Virus record (IMG/VR): IMGVR_UViG_3300037424_000442
Location: 1-54,328 of that record
Reading direction: 5' to 3' (one strand)
Source: a virus
DNA length: 54,328 nt
A program made the position numbers and the translations under genes. Every line of letters begins with the position of its first letter. Positions within the stretch are counted from its first letter, which is position 1. The notes beneath the pieces are model-generated. The model worked only from the letters and a program-made list of their open reading frames with translations, did not search any database and was not told the DNA's origin. Shown in pieces: positions 8,184-54,328 of this stretch.

Positions 8184-8403
8184 TATTTAACCCTGTTTGT
8201 TATGACTGTATTTATACATTGTTTTTATTCTCATATCCATCACAACATAATGGATAAGATGTACCTTTTATTTTAGATAACGAACATTTAAAATATCCGT
8301 AATAATGAATACACGTATAACAAATAGGCGATCCATTAGTTGTAGCAACAAAAATATTATCGTTTATTCTTTTTATCTTATCACCTCAATAAAAAAGGCT
8401 ATT

Positions 8404-8476
8404 AGCTCCCCTCAGATTCGAACTGAGACTCAAAAGTTCCTAAGACTTTCGGCTTTGCCAGTTATCCCAGAGAGCC
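8404..8476 (-). tRNA. tRNA-like gene, anticodon UAG (Leu box, CUA/CUN), class-I architecture
   Basis: 73-nt cloverleaf read by hand. Acceptor stem GGCUCUC/GGGAGCU (G1-U72 wobble). Anticodon arm AAAGU-CUUAGGA-ACUUU. 5-nt variable loop. T arm CUCAG-UUCGAAU-CUGAG. Discriminator A; CCA not encoded. Confidence 0.6.
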
Positions 8477-8479
8477 ATT

Positions 8480-8580
8480 AGACGAGGTGAGAGTCGAACT
8501 CACACTAGATAGGGCTTAAACCTATTGCCTCTGCAGATAGGGCTTAAACCTATTGCCTCTGCCAATTGCGCTACTCGTCC
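8480..8580 (-). tRNA. tRNA-like gene, anticodon UAA (Leu UUA/UUG), interrupted by a 28-nt tandem duplication of the anticodon arm
   Basis: 101 nt. Deleting one 28-nt copy leaves a canonical 73-nt cloverleaf. Acceptor stem GGACGAG/CUCGUCU, anticodon arm AUAGG-UUUAAGC-CCUAU, T arm GUGAG-UUCGACU-CUCAC, discriminator A. The D stem is weak. Confidence 0.45.
8507..8562. repeat. perfect 28-bp tandem duplication (8507-8534 = 8535-8562) inside the tRNA-like gene
   Basis: agatagggcttaaacctattgcctctgc occurs twice back to back. Confidence 0.95.
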
Positions 8581-9232: not shown

Positions 9233-9361
9233 TTATTCATCTTTCCAACATACACAAGGCTTATGCCCACCACAATACGGACAATAATCTTGCATAATCT
9301 CAAGTCGCTCCTCTTCAGTTAAACTGTCAATCATCTCTTTAATTTTTTCTATTCTAGTCAT
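9233..9361 (-). CDS. small Cys-rich protein (42 aa)
   Basis: ATG at 9361 overlaps the methylase stop; AGAGGT upstream. Translation MTRIEKIKEMIDSLTEEERLEIMQDYCPYCGGHKPCVCWKDE. Confidence 0.45.
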   Translation of the reverse strand: MTRIEKIKEMIDSLTEEERLEIMQDYCPYCGGHKPCVCWKDE

Positions 9362-10346
9362 TGGTTACCTCTGTTAATTCATCAAACATTGTCATGTCAT
9401 CTTCTTCTTTTTTCTTATAAAAATCTTTTGCACCCTCTAGGTTTTTTACGGATTGCTTATAGTATGATTCTTTTAACTCAATTCCTATCCCTTTTCTATC
9501 ATTAGCAACTGCACCAAAAACCTCACTCCCGACACCCATAAAAGGAGTCAATATAGTTTCACCCTCATTTGATCTTAATTGTATAATTCTGTTTATCACG
9601 TCTAATTGTAACGGGTGTACGTGTTTTTCATCGTCTTCATCTCTACCCCCAACAAAATCTAAAACCTCGTCAAGCCTTATATCATACCAAACTGAACTTG
9701 CATAATTACGCCATATCCAATGTGAATATCTATTCTCTGTTTGTTTGCCTTTATAATTTAAATATTTATGTATATCATAAGGCATTTTTTCATCGCCTGC
9801 ATAATGAGTTAATCCGAACGGGTGTGCAATCGGAGTTTCATTTATACCTTTTTTCCTAAAAATTAATAGATAATCAGCTCCAGCAACTCCACAATAAATA
9901 GAATCATCAACTACTGTCTTATGTGCTAAATTTTTCTGCATAGTCCTATTCCTTACAGTTAAAGGCTCTTTCCAAATTGCATGTCGAGATATATAATCAA
10001 ATCCTATTTTTTGGTGAAGCCTTATAATATCTCCGGGGAAGTCTTGCAAACCATCTTTGCCAGTATTACTTGTAGGGGTGTCCATACAATGGACCGCCGT
10101 GCATCTTCCTTTTTTTGTTATTCGTTCTATTTCTTTTACTACGAACTCATAATGAATAAAAAAATCTTCGTAACTATCACAATTTGATAAATCTCTATCA
10201 GAGCTTGAATATTGATATAGTCCACAGAATGGGGGGCTATATATAGATAAATGTATTGATTCTTCTGGCATCTTTGCCATTACTTCTAAGCAATCGCCAT
10301 TATAAATAGCGTAATCACTCGTAATTTTTTGTTCTTTTATAGCCAT
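9354..10346 (-). CDS. DNA methyltransferase (N6-adenine or N4-cytosine, beta-class motif order)
   Basis: Catalytic SPPF motif near the N-terminus (LSIYSPPFCG). AdoMet motif FxGxG near the C-terminus (LTPFMGVGSEVFGA). No cognate nuclease seen. Confidence 0.8.
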   Translation of the reverse strand: MAIKEQKITSDYAIYNGDCLEVMAKMPEESIHLSIYSPPFCGLYQYSSSDRDLSNCDSYEDFFIHYEFVVKEIERITKKGRCTAVHCMDTPTSNTGKDGLQDFPGDIIRLHQKIGFDYISRHAIWKEPLTVRNRTMQKNLAHKTVVDDSIYCGVAGADYLLIFRKKGINETPIAHPFGLTHYAGDEKMPYDIHKYLNYKGKQTENRYSHWIWRNYASSVWYDIRLDEVLDFVGGRDEDDEKHVHPLQLDVINRIIQLRSNEGETILTPFMGVGSEVFGAVANDRKGIGIELKESYYKQSVKNLEGAKDFYKKKEEDDMTMFDELTEVTND

Positions 10347-11713
10347 GATGGTAAGCTCTCCTCTAAGTTATATTTTTTATATCTATCAATATTGATAGAG
10401 TTATTCATTTCCTTAACTAAATGTTCAAACATTTTCTCAGCTTGTTTTTGTTTTCTCTCTAAATTATATATAACATTTTCGAATCCTTCGGAATAAATTA
10501 CATCGACGTTAACCTCTCTTTTCTGACCAAATCTCCAGCATCTTCTAATAGCTTGATAAAATTGCTCGTAAGAGTGCGTAGGAAAAAATATTACATGATT
10601 GCAATGTTGCCAATTTAAACCAAACGATCCTATTTTTGGTTTAATAATCATAACTCTTATTTTGCCATTAGAGAAATTTATTAGTTTTTCTTCTTTTGAC
10701 TCGTCGCTGTCTCTACCACTAATTTGAACCGCATCGGGGATAAGCCTATCTAATAAATCTCCCTCATCATTTAAGTTACACCATATCACAGCATATCCAT
10801 TTGTGTTGTTAACTTTATTCGCAGCTTCTTCGCATCGATCTGTTATAGTTTGCCTTATCTCTTGCCGTTCTTCTTGTAATCCAATTGCCATATATGAAAA
10901 TTCTGGAAAATAACCATCAGGGGTATATACCGATAATTTTAATAAATGGTTTTTTATGTTTAGTTTAGGCAATATAAATTTATTATCATCATATCCTAAA
11001 TCGGAGGGTTTTCTTATAGCTCTTGACCAGCTTGTTACCCATCTCCAAAAATGATCGTGGGCATGTCCTTTTAATCTCCATTTTACTTGATTCCTTGAAT
11101 TACTTTTTGTCGAACTATTGTTAGCTTCATTCTTAAAAAACTTACTTAACATATCCATATATCCAAGATATCCAAGCGCTTCGCTGGACGTGCCAAGTTC
11201 AATATAATCATTCGGGGCTGCCGTTGCGGTTGCTAACAATCTATATTTTATTTTTCTCATAAATATATTTATCTCTTGTTTATAAGCACCATCAAAGTTT
11301 TTTAAGATCGAACTTTCATCACAAACAACACCACTAAAATCATTTGCATCAAAATTATGTAAACTCTCGTAGTTAGTAATAATTAATTTTTTACTGAACT
11401 TCCCATTTTTTGAACGTTCAACATCTGGAATGTTAAACTTTTCAGCCTCTTGTAACATTTGCATTGAAACCGCTAAAGGAGTTAATAATAATACAGGATT
11501 GTTTGTGTGTTCAATAACATTTTGACACCATACTAACTCTTGAAAACTTTTTCCAAGTCCACAATCTTCAAATAATGCTGATCGGCCTTTTAACAATGAC
11601 CATTCGACCAGTTCTTTCTGAAAGTCAAAAAGATTATCCGGCATAAACAAATATTTAAAACCATGATTTTCAGATATATTTCTTTTTTTTTCTAAAAACT
11701 CTTTATATTCCAT
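10337..11713 (-). CDS. SNF2/DEAD-like superfamily 2 helicase
   Basis: Walker A DCGLGKS. Motif II VVCDESSILKN. Motif III LATATAAPN. Motif VI QAIRRCWRFGQKREV. Confidence 0.8.
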   Translation of the reverse strand: MEYKEFLEKKRNISENHGFKYLFMPDNLFDFQKELVEWSLLKGRSALFEDCGLGKSFQELVWCQNVIEHTNNPVLLLTPLAVSMQMLQEAEKFNIPDVERSKNGKFSKKLIITNYESLHNFDANDFSGVVCDESSILKNFDGAYKQEINIFMRKIKYRLLATATAAPNDYIELGTSSEALGYLGYMDMLSKFFKNEANNSSTKSNSRNQVKWRLKGHAHDHFWRWVTSWSRAIRKPSDLGYDDNKFILPKLNIKNHLLKLSVYTPDGYFPEFSYMAIGLQEERQEIRQTITDRCEEAANKVNNTNGYAVIWCNLNDEGDLLDRLIPDAVQISGRDSDESKEEKLINFSNGKIRVMIIKPKIGSFGLNWQHCNHVIFFPTHSYEQFYQAIRRCWRFGQKREVNVDVIYSEGFENVIYNLERKQKQAEKMFEHLVKEMNNSINIDRYKKYNLEESLPSWL

Positions 11714-11729
11714 ACGCGTACTATCTCAC

Positions 11730-12776
11730 TTAATCTTTGTCTACATCTATTCCGCTTATTTCAAAAAACATTTTTTTGTCAAATTCTGGCAAGGATTGAA
11801 TATAATCTATTGCTTCTCTCGGCATACCAGACCAGTCAAGGTCCTCATATCCGAAAATTTTATCACTCGGAATTTCTGAATTGTTACTAATCTCTTCTTT
11901 TAGCAGGTGATAGTTGTTGGCTTTTGGCAACCACCCGCAGAGGGAGATGTATAATTTTTCTTTTATTTTTTCAAACCTTTCTTTTGTTATTTTTTTATTA
12001 AATATCTTATATGTTTCTTTTTTATTTAAATTAAATAACTCATTTGCAATGCCATTACATTTTTTGATCCCAAAAGAATTATGAATGCCGTTCGAGCAGT
12101 TGTTGCCGTTCGAGTAGTTGTTGCCGTTCGAGAAGTTGTTGCCGTTCGAGTAGTTGTTGCCGTCCGAGTAGTTGTTGCCGTTCGAGCAGTTGTTGCCGTC
12201 CGAGTAGTTGTTGCCGTTCGAGCGGTTGTTGCCGTTCGAGCAGTTGTTGCCGTCCGAGTAGTTGTTGCCGTTCGAGAAGTTGTTGCCGTCCGAGCGGTTG
12301 TTGCCGTTCGAGCAGTTGTTGCCGTTCGAGTAGTTGTTGCCGTTCGAGCAGTTGTTGCCGTCCGAGTAGTTGTTGCCGTTCGAGCGGTTGTTGCCGTCCG
12401 AGTAGTTGTTGCCGTTCGAGCGGTTGTTGCCGTTCGAGCAGTTGTTGCCGTCCGAGCGGTTGTTGCCGTCATCAATAGATTGCTTTTTGATAATTTCAAT
12501 CATCTCTTGAAAATCAAATAATCTTATTATTTTAATTTTACTCGCACAAAATTTGTCTGTTTTTTCGCCTAAAATCTTCCCGTACAACTCAACCTCAACA
12601 AATTTATTTCTCTGGTTAGGTGCATAATAATCAAAACATCTTTGCATATAATGGCAAGCATGGAATCCCTTGTTACACAAGGATATATCAGATTCTGGCA
12701 TTTCATAAGTTTTACCAACCTCATATTGAAATTCATTACATGTAAAATCGTGATTTAAAATTTTATAAGCTCTCAT
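11730..12776 (-). CDS. tandem hexapeptide ([ND]GNN[YCRF]S) repeat protein with conserved N- and C-terminal phage domains
   Basis: 102-aa N-terminal Cys/His domain ([21 protein letters not shown]...[10 protein letters not shown]). Then 21 perfect six-residue repeats plus one degenerate repeat. C-terminal segment ends ...[26 protein letters not shown]. Confidence 0.75.
12093..12470 (-). repeat. 18-bp in-frame tandem repeat x21 (unit ccgt[tc]cgag[cta][ag]gttgttg on + strand)
   Basis: Only three nucleotide positions per 18-mer vary. Every other position, including codon third positions, is invariant across units. Confidence 0.9.
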
Positions 12777-12855: not shown

Positions 12856-13965
12856 TTAGCTTAATTTATATTTAATTACATTATCTGATTTATCACCCCT
12901 GCTAATGTACACGTTATTTATTTTTAATATTTTACTTATGTTCTCAATAAAATTATTTTCATTATCACAATATATTATATTGCCATTATAAGTAAATCTA
13001 TATTCATCTTGAATATGATCTAAGCAAGTAATAACTAAATTTTTATTATTATGGAATCTAATATATTCATCTTTATTTATTGCATATTCTAACAACGAAA
13101 CATCTAATATAGACCGTCTAAAATTGCCTTGATATTTATTTGTTTTATTGCTCTCATTTGGATTTATTTTTATATTATGAGGAAGGGTTTCATTTGTCAT
13201 ATATCCATTTCCATGTCTCGTTTGATATGCCCTTGTTACTAGATATATTTCTAATTTTTTTTTAGTAAAATGTTTTATATTATTTATGCCGATGTCTGAT
13301 CTCGTAACGTTAGGGAAAAAGCCATAAGATCGATCTAACATCAACCCTTGATTCCCCTCGTATACATGATCTGTATAGCCTTTTGGGATACCAAATCTTT
13401 TTTGAATTATACTTTTGCTTATTTTAATCTTTTCAATAGCGTCTATAAAGCCATCTAAATTGATTTGTTTTTTATAATAGGTTGAAATGTTTCTTAACTT
13501 TTCGTAGAAAACTTCTCTATAAAATATATCATTAAAAGTTAATGAATAATAATTATTTTCTCTTTCTATTGTCGTCCCAAACCCTACCCCGATACTGCCG
13601 TGATAATTTTTATTTTCTCTATTCTGATTTTCTTTTATATCATACGGAGTTGTTATAGGACAACGTTCATCTAAAAATATAAAAGGAATTATCCCTTGAC
13701 ATTGTAATACTTTTAATTCTTTTAAAAATCCAACGGGTTCAAATGTACAAAATTTACTCCAATACGTTGGAATGCCTCGAAGGCTTCCGGAGCCAAAATT
13801 AGAAAACATATGTCGTATATTTTTATATACGACAGTATGCCCTACTTGATGACCACCTGAAAACCTAATAACTAATGGGTTTTTAGACTTAGAACATATA
13901 TAATCCGTAAAGAGTCCTTTTCCCTCATCTCCAAATCCAATCCCAATAATTACTTTGTTTTTCAT
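12856..13965 (-). CDS. adenylosuccinate synthetase family protein, short form (PurA/PurZ-like)
   Basis: GFGDEGKG P-loop. RFSGGHQVGHT (compare GGHNAGHT). YEGNQGLMLD (compare EGAQG). TRAYQTRHGNG (compare KAYSTRVGAGP). Length 369 aa, versus about 430 aa as I recall for bacterial PurA. Confidence 0.8.
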   Translation of the reverse strand: MKNKVIIGIGFGDEGKGLFTDYICSKSKNPLVIRFSGGHQVGHTVVYKNIRHMFSNFGSGSLRGIPTYWSKFCTFEPVGFLKELKVLQCQGIIPFIFLDERCPITTPYDIKENQNRENKNYHGSIGVGFGTTIERENNYYSLTFNDIFYREVFYEKLRNISTYYKKQINLDGFIDAIEKIKISKSIIQKRFGIPKGYTDHVYEGNQGLMLDRSYGFFPNVTRSDIGINNIKHFTKKKLEIYLVTRAYQTRHGNGYMTNETLPHNIKINPNESNKTNKYQGNFRRSILDVSLLEYAINKDEYIRFHNNKNLVITCLDHIQDEYRFTYNGNIIYCDNENNFIENISKILKINNVYISRGDKSDNVIKYKLS

Positions 13966-14861
13966 AATATTATTTCTTCTTTCTTTTCTGTAATTTTATT
14001 TATTTGTTCTTTATTTTTTATTTTACTATTAACATTTTTAATTATTAGCTCTGGTATTACTTTGGAAATATCTTTATAGTGGTCTACTATAATAAGATTA
14101 TCTCTAAGTATTTGAGTCCATCCATCGATAACATCTTGCCTACTCCCATTGCTACCCTGTTTAATATGAAGGTGATAAACATGATATTTTTCATTTGCTT
14201 TTTCTAAAAGCGAAGCCGATGTAAAATCTTCATATTGTCCATCACCCATAATATTTTTAATCACATTCTTTGGAATATCTAGTAATGTCGGCTCATCACC
14301 AATAGAAATTAATATACCTTTCTGATTTCTTTTTTCTAGGCAATCAATAGATGTATGATACCCAGCAAAATACCAAGATAACAAATAACTTTCCCCATTA
14401 TTACCACCACCGCCACCTTCAAGAAATGTATCAGTAAGCCACTTATCAAGCATTTCATCGCTTGACTCATATTGACCTACTTGTAATGGGGATTTATCGC
14501 ATTCATGGTCACCGATAGCCAAAAAAAGCACCTGAGGATGTTTTATTCCTGACTGAATTATATTCCCCATAATAGTCGGTAATCCTTCTTTAATTAGATG
14601 ATGAGGTATCGACCCCATAGAACCAGTTACATCTAATGCAATTATTATTGCTATACTTTCCGGATGTTCGTCTGAGTCTCTTGATTCTCTAATCTTGACA
14701 TTATAAGGATTCATTGCGTTATTAACCGATCTTTGTTGAAAGGTTTCATTAATTGACATAGATTCATAGTCTATACCCTTTGACCTTAATCTAGATTCTC
14801 TTATGTTCGGGTCATAATCACCCGTAAGACTTGAAACTGAATAACTACCGCCTCCCATCAT
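13962..14861 (-). CDS. von Willebrand factor type A (vWA) domain protein
   Basis: MIDAS-like motif IIALDVTGSMGS followed by alternating hydrophobic strands. Its stop overlaps the PurA-like start (ATGA). Confidence 0.65.
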   Translation of the reverse strand: MMGGGSYSVSSLTGDYDPNIRESRLRSKGIDYESMSINETFQQRSVNNAMNPYNVKIRESRDSDEHPESIAIIIALDVTGSMGSIPHHLIKEGLPTIMGNIIQSGIKHPQVLFLAIGDHECDKSPLQVGQYESSDEMLDKWLTDTFLEGGGGGNNGESYLLSWYFAGYHTSIDCLEKRNQKGILISIGDEPTLLDIPKNVIKNIMGDGQYEDFTSASLLEKANEKYHVYHLHIKQGSNGSRQDVIDGWTQILRDNLIIVDHYKDISKVIPELIIKNVNSKIKNKEQINKITEKKEEIIL

Positions 14862-15199
14862 ACACCTCCGAATAAATATGCAAATCTTTTTTTTGCAATG
14901 TCTAATTTAATTTCTTCATTTCTGATTTTAACACCAAGCTCTAAGTCCTTAGATACATACTCATTTGCATTAAAATCACTTGCAAGTTTTAAGCTCGTGG
15001 CAGTTTCAGGCGACAGGTCAAGCATGTTCTCTTGATCTCTTTTCATACGATTAATATTCACCTCTAAGTCCTCTACTTCTCGCTTATAAAGAAGCTGAGC
15101 ATCTTCAACAATAGCTAATGCTCTGTCGTCTCTTATTTGCTTATTATTTCTTTTAAGAGACTGGAAAAATGCACCTTCATTTTTAATTTCATCACTCAT
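14858..15199 (-). CDS. hypothetical coiled-coil protein (113 aa)
   Basis: Co-oriented ORF. Its stop overlaps the vWA gene start (ATGA). Confidence 0.55.
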   Translation of the reverse strand: MSDEIKNEGAFFQSLKRNNKQIRDDRALAIVEDAQLLYKREVEDLEVNINRMKRDQENMLDLSPETATSLKLASDFNANEYVSKDLELGVKIRNEEIKLDIAKKRFAYLFGGV

Positions 15200-15230
15200 T
15201 TTATTCTCCTTTGTTCTAGTTTATATTTAT

Positions 15231-15355: not shown

Positions 15356-15670
15356 TTAGATTGACTCCATAATTATTTCTTCCCATGATTTATTGTAGTA
15401 TTTTTCGAGTAGCTCTATTTTTTCTTTATTTTGTAATAATGCAACTTGCTTATTAAAACCTACAAAAACAGCATTATTTATTGATTCTTTTATATCGTTT
15501 TTTATAAGCAAGGACATTTCTTCCTGCAATTCAGTTGCTTTTTCAAGATCGGGTAAATATTTTTCTATAATATTTATATTTGCACTTCTTGTAAAAGAAT
15601 GTATTATTTTAGACCTTTTATTTATAATTAACTCTTTTTTCATCTCTTCAATAATTTCTTTAAGCATCAT
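15356..15670 (-). CDS. hypothetical protein (104 aa)
   Basis: Co-oriented ORF with ATGA overlap to the upstream gene. Confidence 0.55.
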   Translation of the reverse strand: MMLKEIIEEMKKELIINKRSKIIHSFTRSANINIIEKYLPDLEKATELQEEMSLLIKNDIKESINNAVFVGFNKQVALLQNKEKIELLEKYYNKSWEEIIMESI

Positions 15671-40405: not shown

Positions 40406-41044
40406 TTACGATTCTATTGCCATGGGCAATAAATATCTAATTTTATTTTTATGAATAATGTTCATATTTATTTTATTATATTTTTCTCTATTTTTATTTT
40501 TTTCTAAAGGTCTAAGGTTCCTATAATTCCAACATTTCTTTTGTTCTGATTCTTTTTTTAAGTTAAATATTGAAATGGGGATTATGTGATCTATTTCCCA
40601 ATATTCCCCATAGTTATCCCAAGACATATTTAAATTAAAATTACTTTCAATGTGTTTTTTAAAATACGATATATTACACCCTAGTAATTCAGAAAATTTA
40701 TTATTCTTATATTTTCTTGTTGTCCTCCATACTTTATATCTTAATCTTTCTTTAAGTTTAAAATCGATGTCATTTTTTAATCTTTTATTTCTATATTTTC
40801 GCCTTGTTATCCTTTGTCTAACTATTTTATCTTCTTCATTTTTATATCTTGGTTTAGTTCCTACTTGTCTATTTTTACTTCTTTCCTTCTCCATCTCTCT
40901 TATATGATCGCATGATTTACAATAAGTAGAAATTCCATAATTTTTATGTTTATCCTTATAAAAACACTTCTTTTCTTTAATTTTTTTACACAAAGGACAT
41001 TTTTTATAAATAGTATTTTTATTTAGAATAAAAACACTACTCAT
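40406..41044 (-). CDS. HNH homing endonuclease
   Basis: N-terminal Cys4 (CPLCKK...CKSCD). HNH core EIDHIIPISIF...NYRNLRPLEKNKN. Very AT-rich and K-rich compared with the flanking structural genes. Confidence 0.7.
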   Translation of the reverse strand: MSSVFILNKNTIYKKCPLCKKIKEKKCFYKDKHKNYGISTYCKSCDHIREMEKERSKNRQVGTKPRYKNEEDKIVRQRITRRKYRNKRLKNDIDFKLKERLRYKVWRTTRKYKNNKFSELLGCNISYFKKHIESNFNLNMSWDNYGEYWEIDHIIPISIFNLKKESEQKKCWNYRNLRPLEKNKNREKYNKINMNIIHKNKIRYLLPMAIES

Positions 41045-54086: not shown

Positions 54087-54237
54087 CTAAATCATCCATT
54101 TTAATTTTTTCTGCTATATAAACCTTTGCATCAAGCGTCTTAGCCTTTGCAATGCGGTCTATCCAGTATTGTTTTTTTTTAATGTGTAAGTAGGACATGA
54201 CTTTTTTTATGTGTCTAATCTTTTCTTCACTTGTCAT
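54079..54237 (-). CDS. small basic protein (52 aa)
   Basis: The ATG at 54237 corresponds to position 36 of the terminal repeat and overlaps the stop of the 33..338 gene across the circular junction. Translation MTSEEKIRHIKKVMSYLHIKKKQYWIDRIAKAKTLDAKVYIAEKIKMDDLGV. Confidence 0.45.
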   Translation of the reverse strand: MTSEEKIRHIKKVMSYLHIKKKQYWIDRIAKAKTLDAKVYIAEKIKMDDLGV

Positions 54238-54328
54238 TTTGCATAATCCGTTATTAAATCATATAAATTTATAACCTTATTAGACAGGTAAAATAATAAT
54301 TGACTGTTATACTCTCCCGTAATGTCTA
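54202..54328. repeat. terminal direct repeat copy 2 (identical to 1..127)
   Basis: Exact 127-bp match to the window start. Confidence 0.95.

Follow-up and report, generated by a model that had tools for sequence, protein, structure and literature searches.

Adenylosuccinate synthetase (PurA, EC 6.3.4.4, PF00709) has phage-borne, shortened superfamily members in PurZ and PurZ0, in which the catalytic Asp13 of PurA is replaced by Ser in 100% of 147 phage proteins (PMC12884076) and in which a change of this Ser back to Asp abolishes selectivity (PMC12884076; bioRxiv 10.1101/2025.10.22.683976). PurZ travels with DatZ and MazZ/DUF550 and PurZ0 with DutZ/DmtZ, often together with DpoZ. Proteins with a von Willebrand factor A (vWA) domain and a metal ion-dependent adhesion site (MIDAS) serve as adaptors dedicated to one enzyme in the MoxR-vWA pairs (NorQ-NorD, CbbQ-CbbO, and CoxD-CoxE), and a stand-alone MIDAS vWA protein is coupled to a kinase-fold partner in the TerY-P triad. 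At positions 12,856 to 15,199 of IMG/VR virus record IMGVR_UViG_3300037424_000442, which was analysed over its whole length of 54,328 nucleotides (hereafter the window), a PurA-like enzyme is encoded behind a vWA gene. The locus is best explained as a widespread mobile cassette, the core of which is a stand-alone MIDAS vWA protein and a divergent PurA-family enzyme, with an interchangeable third partner encoded upstream. The PurA superfamily itself is already known; what is new is an undescribed and very widespread vWA partnership together with a rebuilt substrate site.

The three genes form one operon on the minus strand, which carries all genes of the window. The open reading frames (ORFs) that an earlier note had called from the letters alone lie where it had placed them, and its sequence motifs were likewise recovered, namely GDEGKG (amino acids (aa) 12-17), GGHQVGHT (aa 37-44), EGNQG (aa 203-207), and TRHGNG (aa 249-254) in the PurA-like protein and DVTGSMGS (aa 77-84) in the vWA protein. 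The features of the locus are as follows:

14858..15199, minus strand: gene 1, a 113-aa conserved helical and charged protein (the 'coiled-coil protein' of the earlier note), from the ORF call
13962..14861, minus strand: gene 2, a stand-alone vWA/MIDAS protein of 299 aa (298 aa from the probable start at 14858)
12856..13965, minus strand: gene 3, a divergent PurA-family enzyme of 369 aa (PF00709, E 5e-38)
13915..13932, minus strand: P-loop GDEGKG of the PurA-like enzyme, with the catalytic Asp retained (Ser in PurZ)
14610..14633, minus strand: MIDAS motif DVTGSMGS of the vWA protein
13962..13965, minus strand: ATGA overlap of the vWA stop and the PurA-like start
14856..14869, minus strand: junction of genes 1 and 2, with the Shine-Dalgarno sequence GGAGGTG (14869-14863) within the end of gene 1, followed by ATGATG
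15206..15211, minus strand: Shine-Dalgarno sequence AAGGAG upstream of gene 1

The pair of vWA and PurA-like genes is the unit that is conserved; the 113-aa protein is an interchangeable third part. Neighbourhoods were sampled at 80 of the 234 loci found in GTDB and at 80 of more than 533 in IMG/VR, and the gene order was observed directly: among loci with enough upstream sequence, 73 of 75 from viruses and 67 of 71 from genomes (140/146) have the vWA gene immediately upstream on the same strand. The earlier note had asked whether the neighbours stay beside the enzyme in related phages, and the vWA gene does. The two proteins also co-vary, with pairwise identities that correlate across 143 loci (r = 0.81), and their numbers in isolated phages run in parallel (vWA versus PurA-like, 200 versus 201 in Mycobacterium, 10 versus 10 in Rhizobium, and 6 versus 6 in Vibrio phages), while PurA/PurZ homologues of Listeria, Staphylococcus, Salmonella, and Acinetobacter come without a vWA gene. 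Phages of Rhizobium (RHph_TM30, gp018/gp019), Vibrio (phiKT1024), and Mycobacterium (I3, gp271/gp273) carry the pair with vWA proteins that are only 32-38% identical to that of the window, and an Electrothrix chromosome carries it at 61% identity. Altogether, it has been found in more than 533 IMG/VR contigs, approximately 217 isolated phages (among them about 200 cluster-C mycobacteriophages, for example I3 and Bxz1), and over 200 species of bacteria, and its function is undescribed. Copies in cable bacteria sit at a fixed position beside psd and ilvBN, opposite a large DnaJ-domain protein, and the Desulfamplus copy has toxin-antitoxin and BrxC/BrxD-type genes around it. Full-text literature yielded no description of a vWA and PurA-like module, with a prior mention not fully excluded because the RNA-repair literature was incompletely covered, and the jumbo-phage survey of the Aravind laboratory does not mention it.

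An uncharacterised three-gene module had been one of the options of the earlier note; this is the one that the evidence supports, except that the core is the pair and the third gene varies. Of 168 loci examined, 75 have a homologue of the 113-aa protein, at 53-69% identity, immediately before the vWA gene; these loci form the subfamily closest to the window and comprise many phage contigs, cable bacteria, Desulfamplus, Methylococcales/Crenothrix, and some Bacteroidales. The family has the invariant motifs GAFxxSLxRNN..IRxDRA, LDLSP, and IR..EI.L....R..LF, and the window protein has no Pfam, PHROG, PADLOC, or PDB match. In 54 other loci, from Saprospiraceae, Lewinellaceae, Haliscomenobacter, many phage contigs, and mycobacteriophages (gp270, annotated 'kinase'), its place is taken by a protein of approximately 295 aa with a J domain (HPD) and a protein-kinase fold without the HRD aspartate; examples are L045:6086-6988, L116:8181-9062, and L008:1469-2599 (I3 gp270). 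The pair stands alone, without a third gene, in at least 16 further loci. A homologous relationship of the small protein to the J-domain/kinase partner was rejected, as hhalign aligned only a 19-residue motif with an E value of 0.09 and a probability of 0.6%. The C-terminal helix of the small protein (14858-14920; eI.LeIA..Ry.yLFG) does resemble residues 224-242 of the L116 protein (iDLELcKr.a.yLLGD), and such a shared helix could be a docking helix, the hhalign result not being significant. A ubiquitin- or Pup-like tag at the C-terminal LFGG-x of the small protein was also rejected, since relatives end in LFEN, LFQN, or LFGEV, and it is further disfavoured because the GG codons coincide with GGAGG, the ribosome-binding site of gene 2.

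These arrangements recall known vWA systems only in part. The coupling to a kinase-fold partner in the 54 loci, including I3 gp270-gp271, is the feature shared with the TerY-P triad, which differs in that neither the window nor its relatives encode a PP2C phosphatase, no PADLOC TerY model matches, the kinase-like partner of the relatives carries a J domain and no HRD Asp, the window itself has the small protein rather than a kinase, and the third enzyme is PurA-like. The MoxR-vWA pairs are similar in dedicating a vWA/MIDAS adaptor to a single enzyme, and NorD is among the top structural matches of the vWA protein; unlike these pairs, no AAA+ MoxR gene is present in the window or among the conserved neighbours at the 168 loci. 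By analogy, the J domain of the kinase-type relatives may bring in the DnaK chaperone in place of MoxR.

The junctions between the genes are tight. On the coding strand, both 4-nt ATGA overlaps proposed in the earlier note are present, seen as TCAT on the plus strand at 13962-13965 and 14858-14861. The vWA ORF opens with ATGATG, and because homologues begin with MGGG and the identical database entry has 298 aa, the true start is probably at 14858, which would leave a 1-nt TGATG overlap with the stop of gene 1. This is the most frequent arrangement of the two genes in relatives (29/68), where 64 of 68 junctions overlap or are at most 15 nt apart. Between the vWA and PurA-like genes, 37 of 143 junctions overlap and 27 more are at most 15 nt wide (64/143). 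Ribosome-binding sites are strong before genes 1 and 2 (AAGGAG and GGAGGTG), and gene 3 has the overlap only. Together, the overlaps and short spacers suggest translational coupling of the vWA and PurA-like genes. Where the spacer between the two is large, the cause in some loci is an inserted GIY-YIG/NUMOD1 homing endonuclease, as observed at L157:9039-9944 and eight other viral loci. Upstream, a gap of 156 nt separates gene 1 from the next ORF (15356-15670) and is likely the start of the operon; a promoter and terminator scan that included this gap gave matches no more frequent than in shuffled sequence.

The vWA protein has no Pfam match and matches phrog_2971 (E 2e-40). Its AlphaFold2 model (predicted local distance difference test score, pLDDT, 82.4) is matched by Foldseek with a probability of 1.0 to Rpn10, NorD, integrin I domains, and the A3 domain of von Willebrand factor, with target-normalised template modelling (TM) scores of up to 0.62, so that the modelled protein is assigned a vWA alpha/beta fold. 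The residues D77-x-T79-x-S81, T170, and G188-D189-E190 are conserved in at least 95% of 143 relatives, and the MIDAS pattern DxSxS...T...D is answered by D77-V-T79-G-S81/T170/D189, with Thr rather than Ser at the second position; a metal site is predicted accordingly. All 143 partners, at identities down to 25%, share the N-terminus M-G-x-[GSTA]-x-[YWF]-S without exception, and it is flexible in the AlphaFold2 model. The family comprises 1904 clusters at 50% identity, and the best 150 of these 1904 representatives are approximately 185-410 aa long, mostly 280-330 aa, with no domain fusions among them. A PDB sequence search found no relatives of the vWA protein or of the 113-aa protein. A side observation concerns Mycobacterium phage Sauce gp259 (L173:3184-4971; NC_054722.1 151683-153470), annotated as 'HNH endonuclease', which is an interrupted vWA partner. 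Its insertion of approximately 255 aa has intein hallmarks, starting with Cys, ending with SN followed by Cys, and giving a weak Hint match, and it is placed exactly before the IFIGDE strand that bears the MIDAS Asp. The same split vWA match was found in several more cluster-C phages.

The PurA-like protein is a short but clear member of its superfamily, as had been claimed from its motifs. It matches PF00709 over aa 5-331 and phrog_1211 with an E value of 6e-45, and it is approximately 60 residues shorter than PurA. Nonetheless, it falls below every curated PurA equivalog cutoff (overall range 368-700), scoring 104 bits against NF002223 (cutoff 402), 95 against TIGR00184 (396), 95 against NF010355 (445), and 70 against NF003295 (368). 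Its AlphaFold2 model (pLDDT 91.6) is closest to bacterial and eukaryotic PurA at TM scores of 0.77-0.79, including the H. pylori, B. anthracis, and E. coli enzymes (the match to 6zxq has E 8e-23 and TM 0.77), whereas the fit to archaeal PurA, PurZ0, and PurZ is weaker (0.61-0.67), PurZ ranking last among the family matches. The likeness to archaeal PurA and phage PurZ that the earlier note had drawn from size is therefore one of length only.

Alignment of 153 unique relatives with E. coli PurA revealed a residue pattern that divides the active site into a kept and a changed part. G12, D13, K16, H41, Q224, and T239 are conserved in nearly all relatives, E14, T42, and G127 are also kept, and R305, D333, and S414 are mostly conserved (S414 in approximately 80%); position 13 is Asp in 151 relatives and an alignment gap in two, with no substitution. 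The window protein has all of Asp13, Lys16, His41, Gln224, and the guanine-specificity residues Asp333 and Ser414, with Cys in place of Lys331. In contrast, N38 is replaced by Q, V273 by H, and T301 by Q in approximately 100% of relatives and K331 by C in approximately 97%, further family-wide replacements are T129 to I/C/V, R131 to V/L/M, T300 to Y/F/W, and R304 to F/Q/L, and R143 and R303 are variable. Relative to PurA, the protein thus differs by N38Q, T129C/V, R131V, V273H, an aromatic residue at T300, T301Q, R304F, and K331C, with R143 and R303 lost. R131, R303, and R304 are known from E. coli PurA mutagenesis as arginines of the L-aspartate site, to which T300 and T301 also belong, and in the window protein Arg131, Thr300, Thr301, Arg303, and Arg304 are V, Y, Q, N, and F. 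The TT...K/R-R stretch that the aspartate-using PurZ and PurZ0 keep is lost in the vWA-linked family. In the H. pylori adenylosuccinate synthetase, inosine monophosphate (IMP) is contacted by Asp12, Asn37, Gly119, Thr121, Thr230, Val264, and Arg294 and by Arg135 of the other subunit, equivalent to D13, N38, G127, T129, T239, V273, R303, and trans-acting R143, and the dimer is required for activity (PMC11571797). Among the contacts Asn38, Thr129, Thr239, Val273, Arg303, and trans Arg143, only Thr239 is retained in the window protein. In PurA, the 5'-phosphate of IMP is held by Asn38, Thr129, and the Arg143 of the partner subunit, and L-aspartate by Arg131, Val273, Thr300, Thr301, Arg303, and Arg304; both sets are replaced across the family, while the P-loop, Asp13, Lys16, His41, Gln224, Thr239, Asp333, and Ser414, which serve GTP binding and phosphorylation of O6, are kept. 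Because of this pattern across the 153 relatives, the apparatus for GTP-dependent activation of a 6-oxopurine is read as intact, and the family as rebuilt at both the 5'-phosphate and the aspartate pocket and at the trans-acting arginine.

The reading that we favour, though tentatively, is that of a vWA-partnered, GTP-dependent enzyme that aminates a 6-oxopurine nucleotide with an amine other than aspartate. The PurA-like enzyme would use GTP to phosphorylate O6 of a hypoxanthine nucleotide, and the resulting 6-phosphoryl purine nucleotide would then be attacked by an amine other than free L-aspartate. Instead of forming the canonical homodimer, it would act together with the vWA protein in a complex, and the small protein, or the J-domain protein recruiting DnaK, would act as an adaptor or regulator. 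The enzyme would make no 2-aminoadenine DNA, and its likely role would be to remodel the purine-nucleotide pool (IMP/dIMP-type) during infection or stress. In one version of this chemistry, which we regard as quite unlikely, the C6 of the GTP-activated hypoxanthine nucleotide would be joined to the alpha-amine of the vWA N-terminal glycine, or (d)IMP or inosine would be re-aminated directly with ammonia. Several points weigh against the favoured proposal. The substrate is judged by alignment at 18-28% identity to solved PurA, and the invariant Arg135, Arg222, His251, and Gln279 (window numbering) could rebuild the IMP and aspartate sites for ordinary adenylosuccinate synthesis. The vWA:PurA-like complex is itself an inference; about a third of loci have the two genes more than 100 nt apart, and no vWA-PurA fusion occurs among the best 150 of the 1904 vWA representatives. 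As for the biological role, it is a guess, repair of the AMP/ATP pool (another option of the earlier note) being a conceivable one, and neither a riboswitch nor a regulator or pathway gene recurs consistently beside the module; 16 loci with bacterial copies had no riboswitch or other RNA element upstream, the only two cyclic di-GMP riboswitches being more than 4 kb away.

The alternatives differ mainly in what they make of the rebuilt pocket and of the vWA linkage. A minimal PurZ pathway, in which dGMP would be turned into a precursor of 2-aminoadenine (Z) for a Z genome with the aid of host enzymes, was the first option of the earlier note, and it would account for the similarly short length and for the label '2-aminooxy adenylosuccinate synthetase' that PHROG (phrog_1211) and RefSeq (NC_067270.1, NC_054722.1, and NC_070966.1) give to this Asp13-containing, vWA-linked clade. 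It was rejected and is now next to impossible: the window protein has Asp13 and lacks the aspartate loop of PurZ, it reaches 23.6 bits with the NCBIfam PurZ model NF038379 (amino_Aden_PurZ; cutoff 300) in a match limited to aa 4-49, PurZ comes last in the fold ranking, and bacterial chromosomes carry the same module. Moreover, PHROG scans of the 55 ORFs of the genome found no DNA polymerase, HD phosphohydrolase, or MazG protein, in agreement with the earlier reading that DatZ, MazZ, and DpoZ are missing, and none of the PurZ0 companions is present. The label is probably an over-annotation; public annotation of the clade otherwise reads 'PurA-like adenylosuccinate synthetase', and the wrong name will inflate counts of Z-genome phages. 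An ordinary auxiliary metabolic PurA is a more serious alternative, albeit an unlikely one. It would convert IMP, GTP, and L-aspartate to adenylosuccinate to supply AMP and dATP, with the vWA and small proteins regulating or stabilising it, and it is favoured by the extent of the PF00709 match, by bacterial PurA as the best structural neighbours, by the intact catalytic and GTP residues, and by the retention of R305 and of the R/K after it in the Arg-rich loop. It sits poorly with a best score of 104 bits against equivalog cutoffs near 400 and with the family-wide replacement of the aspartate-site residues and the loss of N38, T129, and trans-acting R143. In addition, bacteria with the module keep it as what is presumably an extra, tightly vWA-linked paralogue, and no need of PurA for a vWA partner is known.

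Other explanations place the enzyme outside nucleotide supply. In a biological-conflict system serving defence, superinfection exclusion, or counter-defence, the vWA protein and its pseudokinase or small partner would sense a trigger, and the PurA-like protein would be the effector, draining GTP or IMP, making a signalling nucleotide, or removing (d)IMP/(d)ITP that arises from adenosine-deaminase defences of the host. A mobile cassette common to very different phages and bacteria, a vWA and kinase pairing reminiscent of TerY-P, and the setting of the Desulfamplus copy would suit such a system, as would the prominence of filamentous or multicellular carriers (cable bacteria, Crenothrix/Methylococcales, and Saprospiraceae), which is an impression from record titles rather than a statistic. 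Sporadic neighbours of phage copies, encoding TROVE, NADAR, PNK, HAD_SAK, R2K ATP-grasp, and ligase proteins, point the same way. MazG-nucleotidyltransferase genes are sporadic neighbours as well, and L005:2613-4061, L007:7397-8905, L007:1032-1676, and L172:7757-8665 are TROVE/Ro60, NADAR, and MazG-nucleotidyltransferase genes only a few genes away from the module. However, PADLOC models match none of the three proteins, on which ground a known defence system was rejected, and the fixed site in cable bacteria looks vertically inherited, unlike a defence island. Phage and bacterial copies are also 53-65% identical, which points to a universal and slowly evolving target, the kinase-like partner lacks the catalytic Asp, and TROVE is found in only 6 of 80 viral loci. 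An obligatory Ro60/TROVE link to RNA repair was rejected on the same count, with 1 of 80 genomic loci, despite its occurrence near the module in L005 and phiKT1024. Taken as a whole, a conflict role is given a low probability. Lower still, and in our view very doubtful, is a macromolecular substrate, with a nucleotide joined to the N-terminal glycine of the vWA protein or inosine in RNA or DNA re-aminated. This would explain why the flexible N-terminus is invariant in otherwise divergent partners, draws on the use of an alpha-amine in PurA chemistry, and accords with the change of carboxylate-binding arginines to aromatic, His, and Gln residues, with the altered 5'-phosphate contacts, and with the occasional RNA-repair-type neighbours. 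On the other hand, the proposal is purely inferential, a protein ligase in the PurA family is without precedent, and the N-terminal conservation could stem from constraints on an interface or on translation initiation.

The consequences depend on which chemistry holds. If the amine or a macromolecular acceptor is new, the module would represent a new purine reaction and a new means of nucleotide-pool control by phages and filamentous bacteria; if it is only a regulated PurA, it would still clearly illustrate how a metabolic enzyme can take on an obligate vWA partner. Conjugation to the vWA glycine would yield a covalent protein-nucleotide conjugate, an 'N-terminal purinylation', and direct re-amination of (d)IMP or inosine to adenine by ammonia would reverse adenosine-deaminase attack in a single step, either being a reaction type not known for the PurA superfamily. 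The module is small and conserved, and mycobacteriophages that are genetically tractable carry it, so that the question is directly testable.

The genome in which the module resides is complete, as the earlier note had stated: an exact direct repeat of 127 bp at both ends (1-127 and 54202-54328) supports a circular assembly of approximately 54.2 kb, with a non-redundant length of 54,201 bp. A search of phage GenBank found no DNA-level relatives, leaving the phage without a close isolate relative, and its capsid protein is at most 29% identical to that of any isolate. PHROG scans identified a myovirus structural module (sheath, baseplate, tape measure, capsid, portal, and TerL) and a host-dependent replication module with DnaD-like and DnaC-like loaders, a single-stranded DNA-binding protein, Erf, an exonuclease, a resolvase, a methyltransferase, and an SNF2 helicase.

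Some features elsewhere in the genome were also recorded. Directly downstream of the module, an ORF at 11730-12776 (minus strand) encodes a DUF7666 N-domain followed by a repeat region (12086-12469) of approximately 21 copies of an 18-bp unit encoding NGNN[RCYF]S[ND] hexapeptides. Beyond the module and this repeat protein, at 9354-11713 (minus strand), a DNA methyltransferase gene (330 aa) overlaps an SNF2-like helicase gene (458 aa) by 10 nt. An Rfam tRNA match at 8479-8580 (minus strand; 102 nt, 43.6 bits) adjoins a tRNA-Leu called by ARAGORN (8402-8477); it was not called by ARAGORN itself and may be an unusual or intron-containing tRNA. Finally, the tail-sheath and head genes are separated by an endonuclease VII-like ORF at 40406-41044 (minus strand), a possible mobile nuclease.

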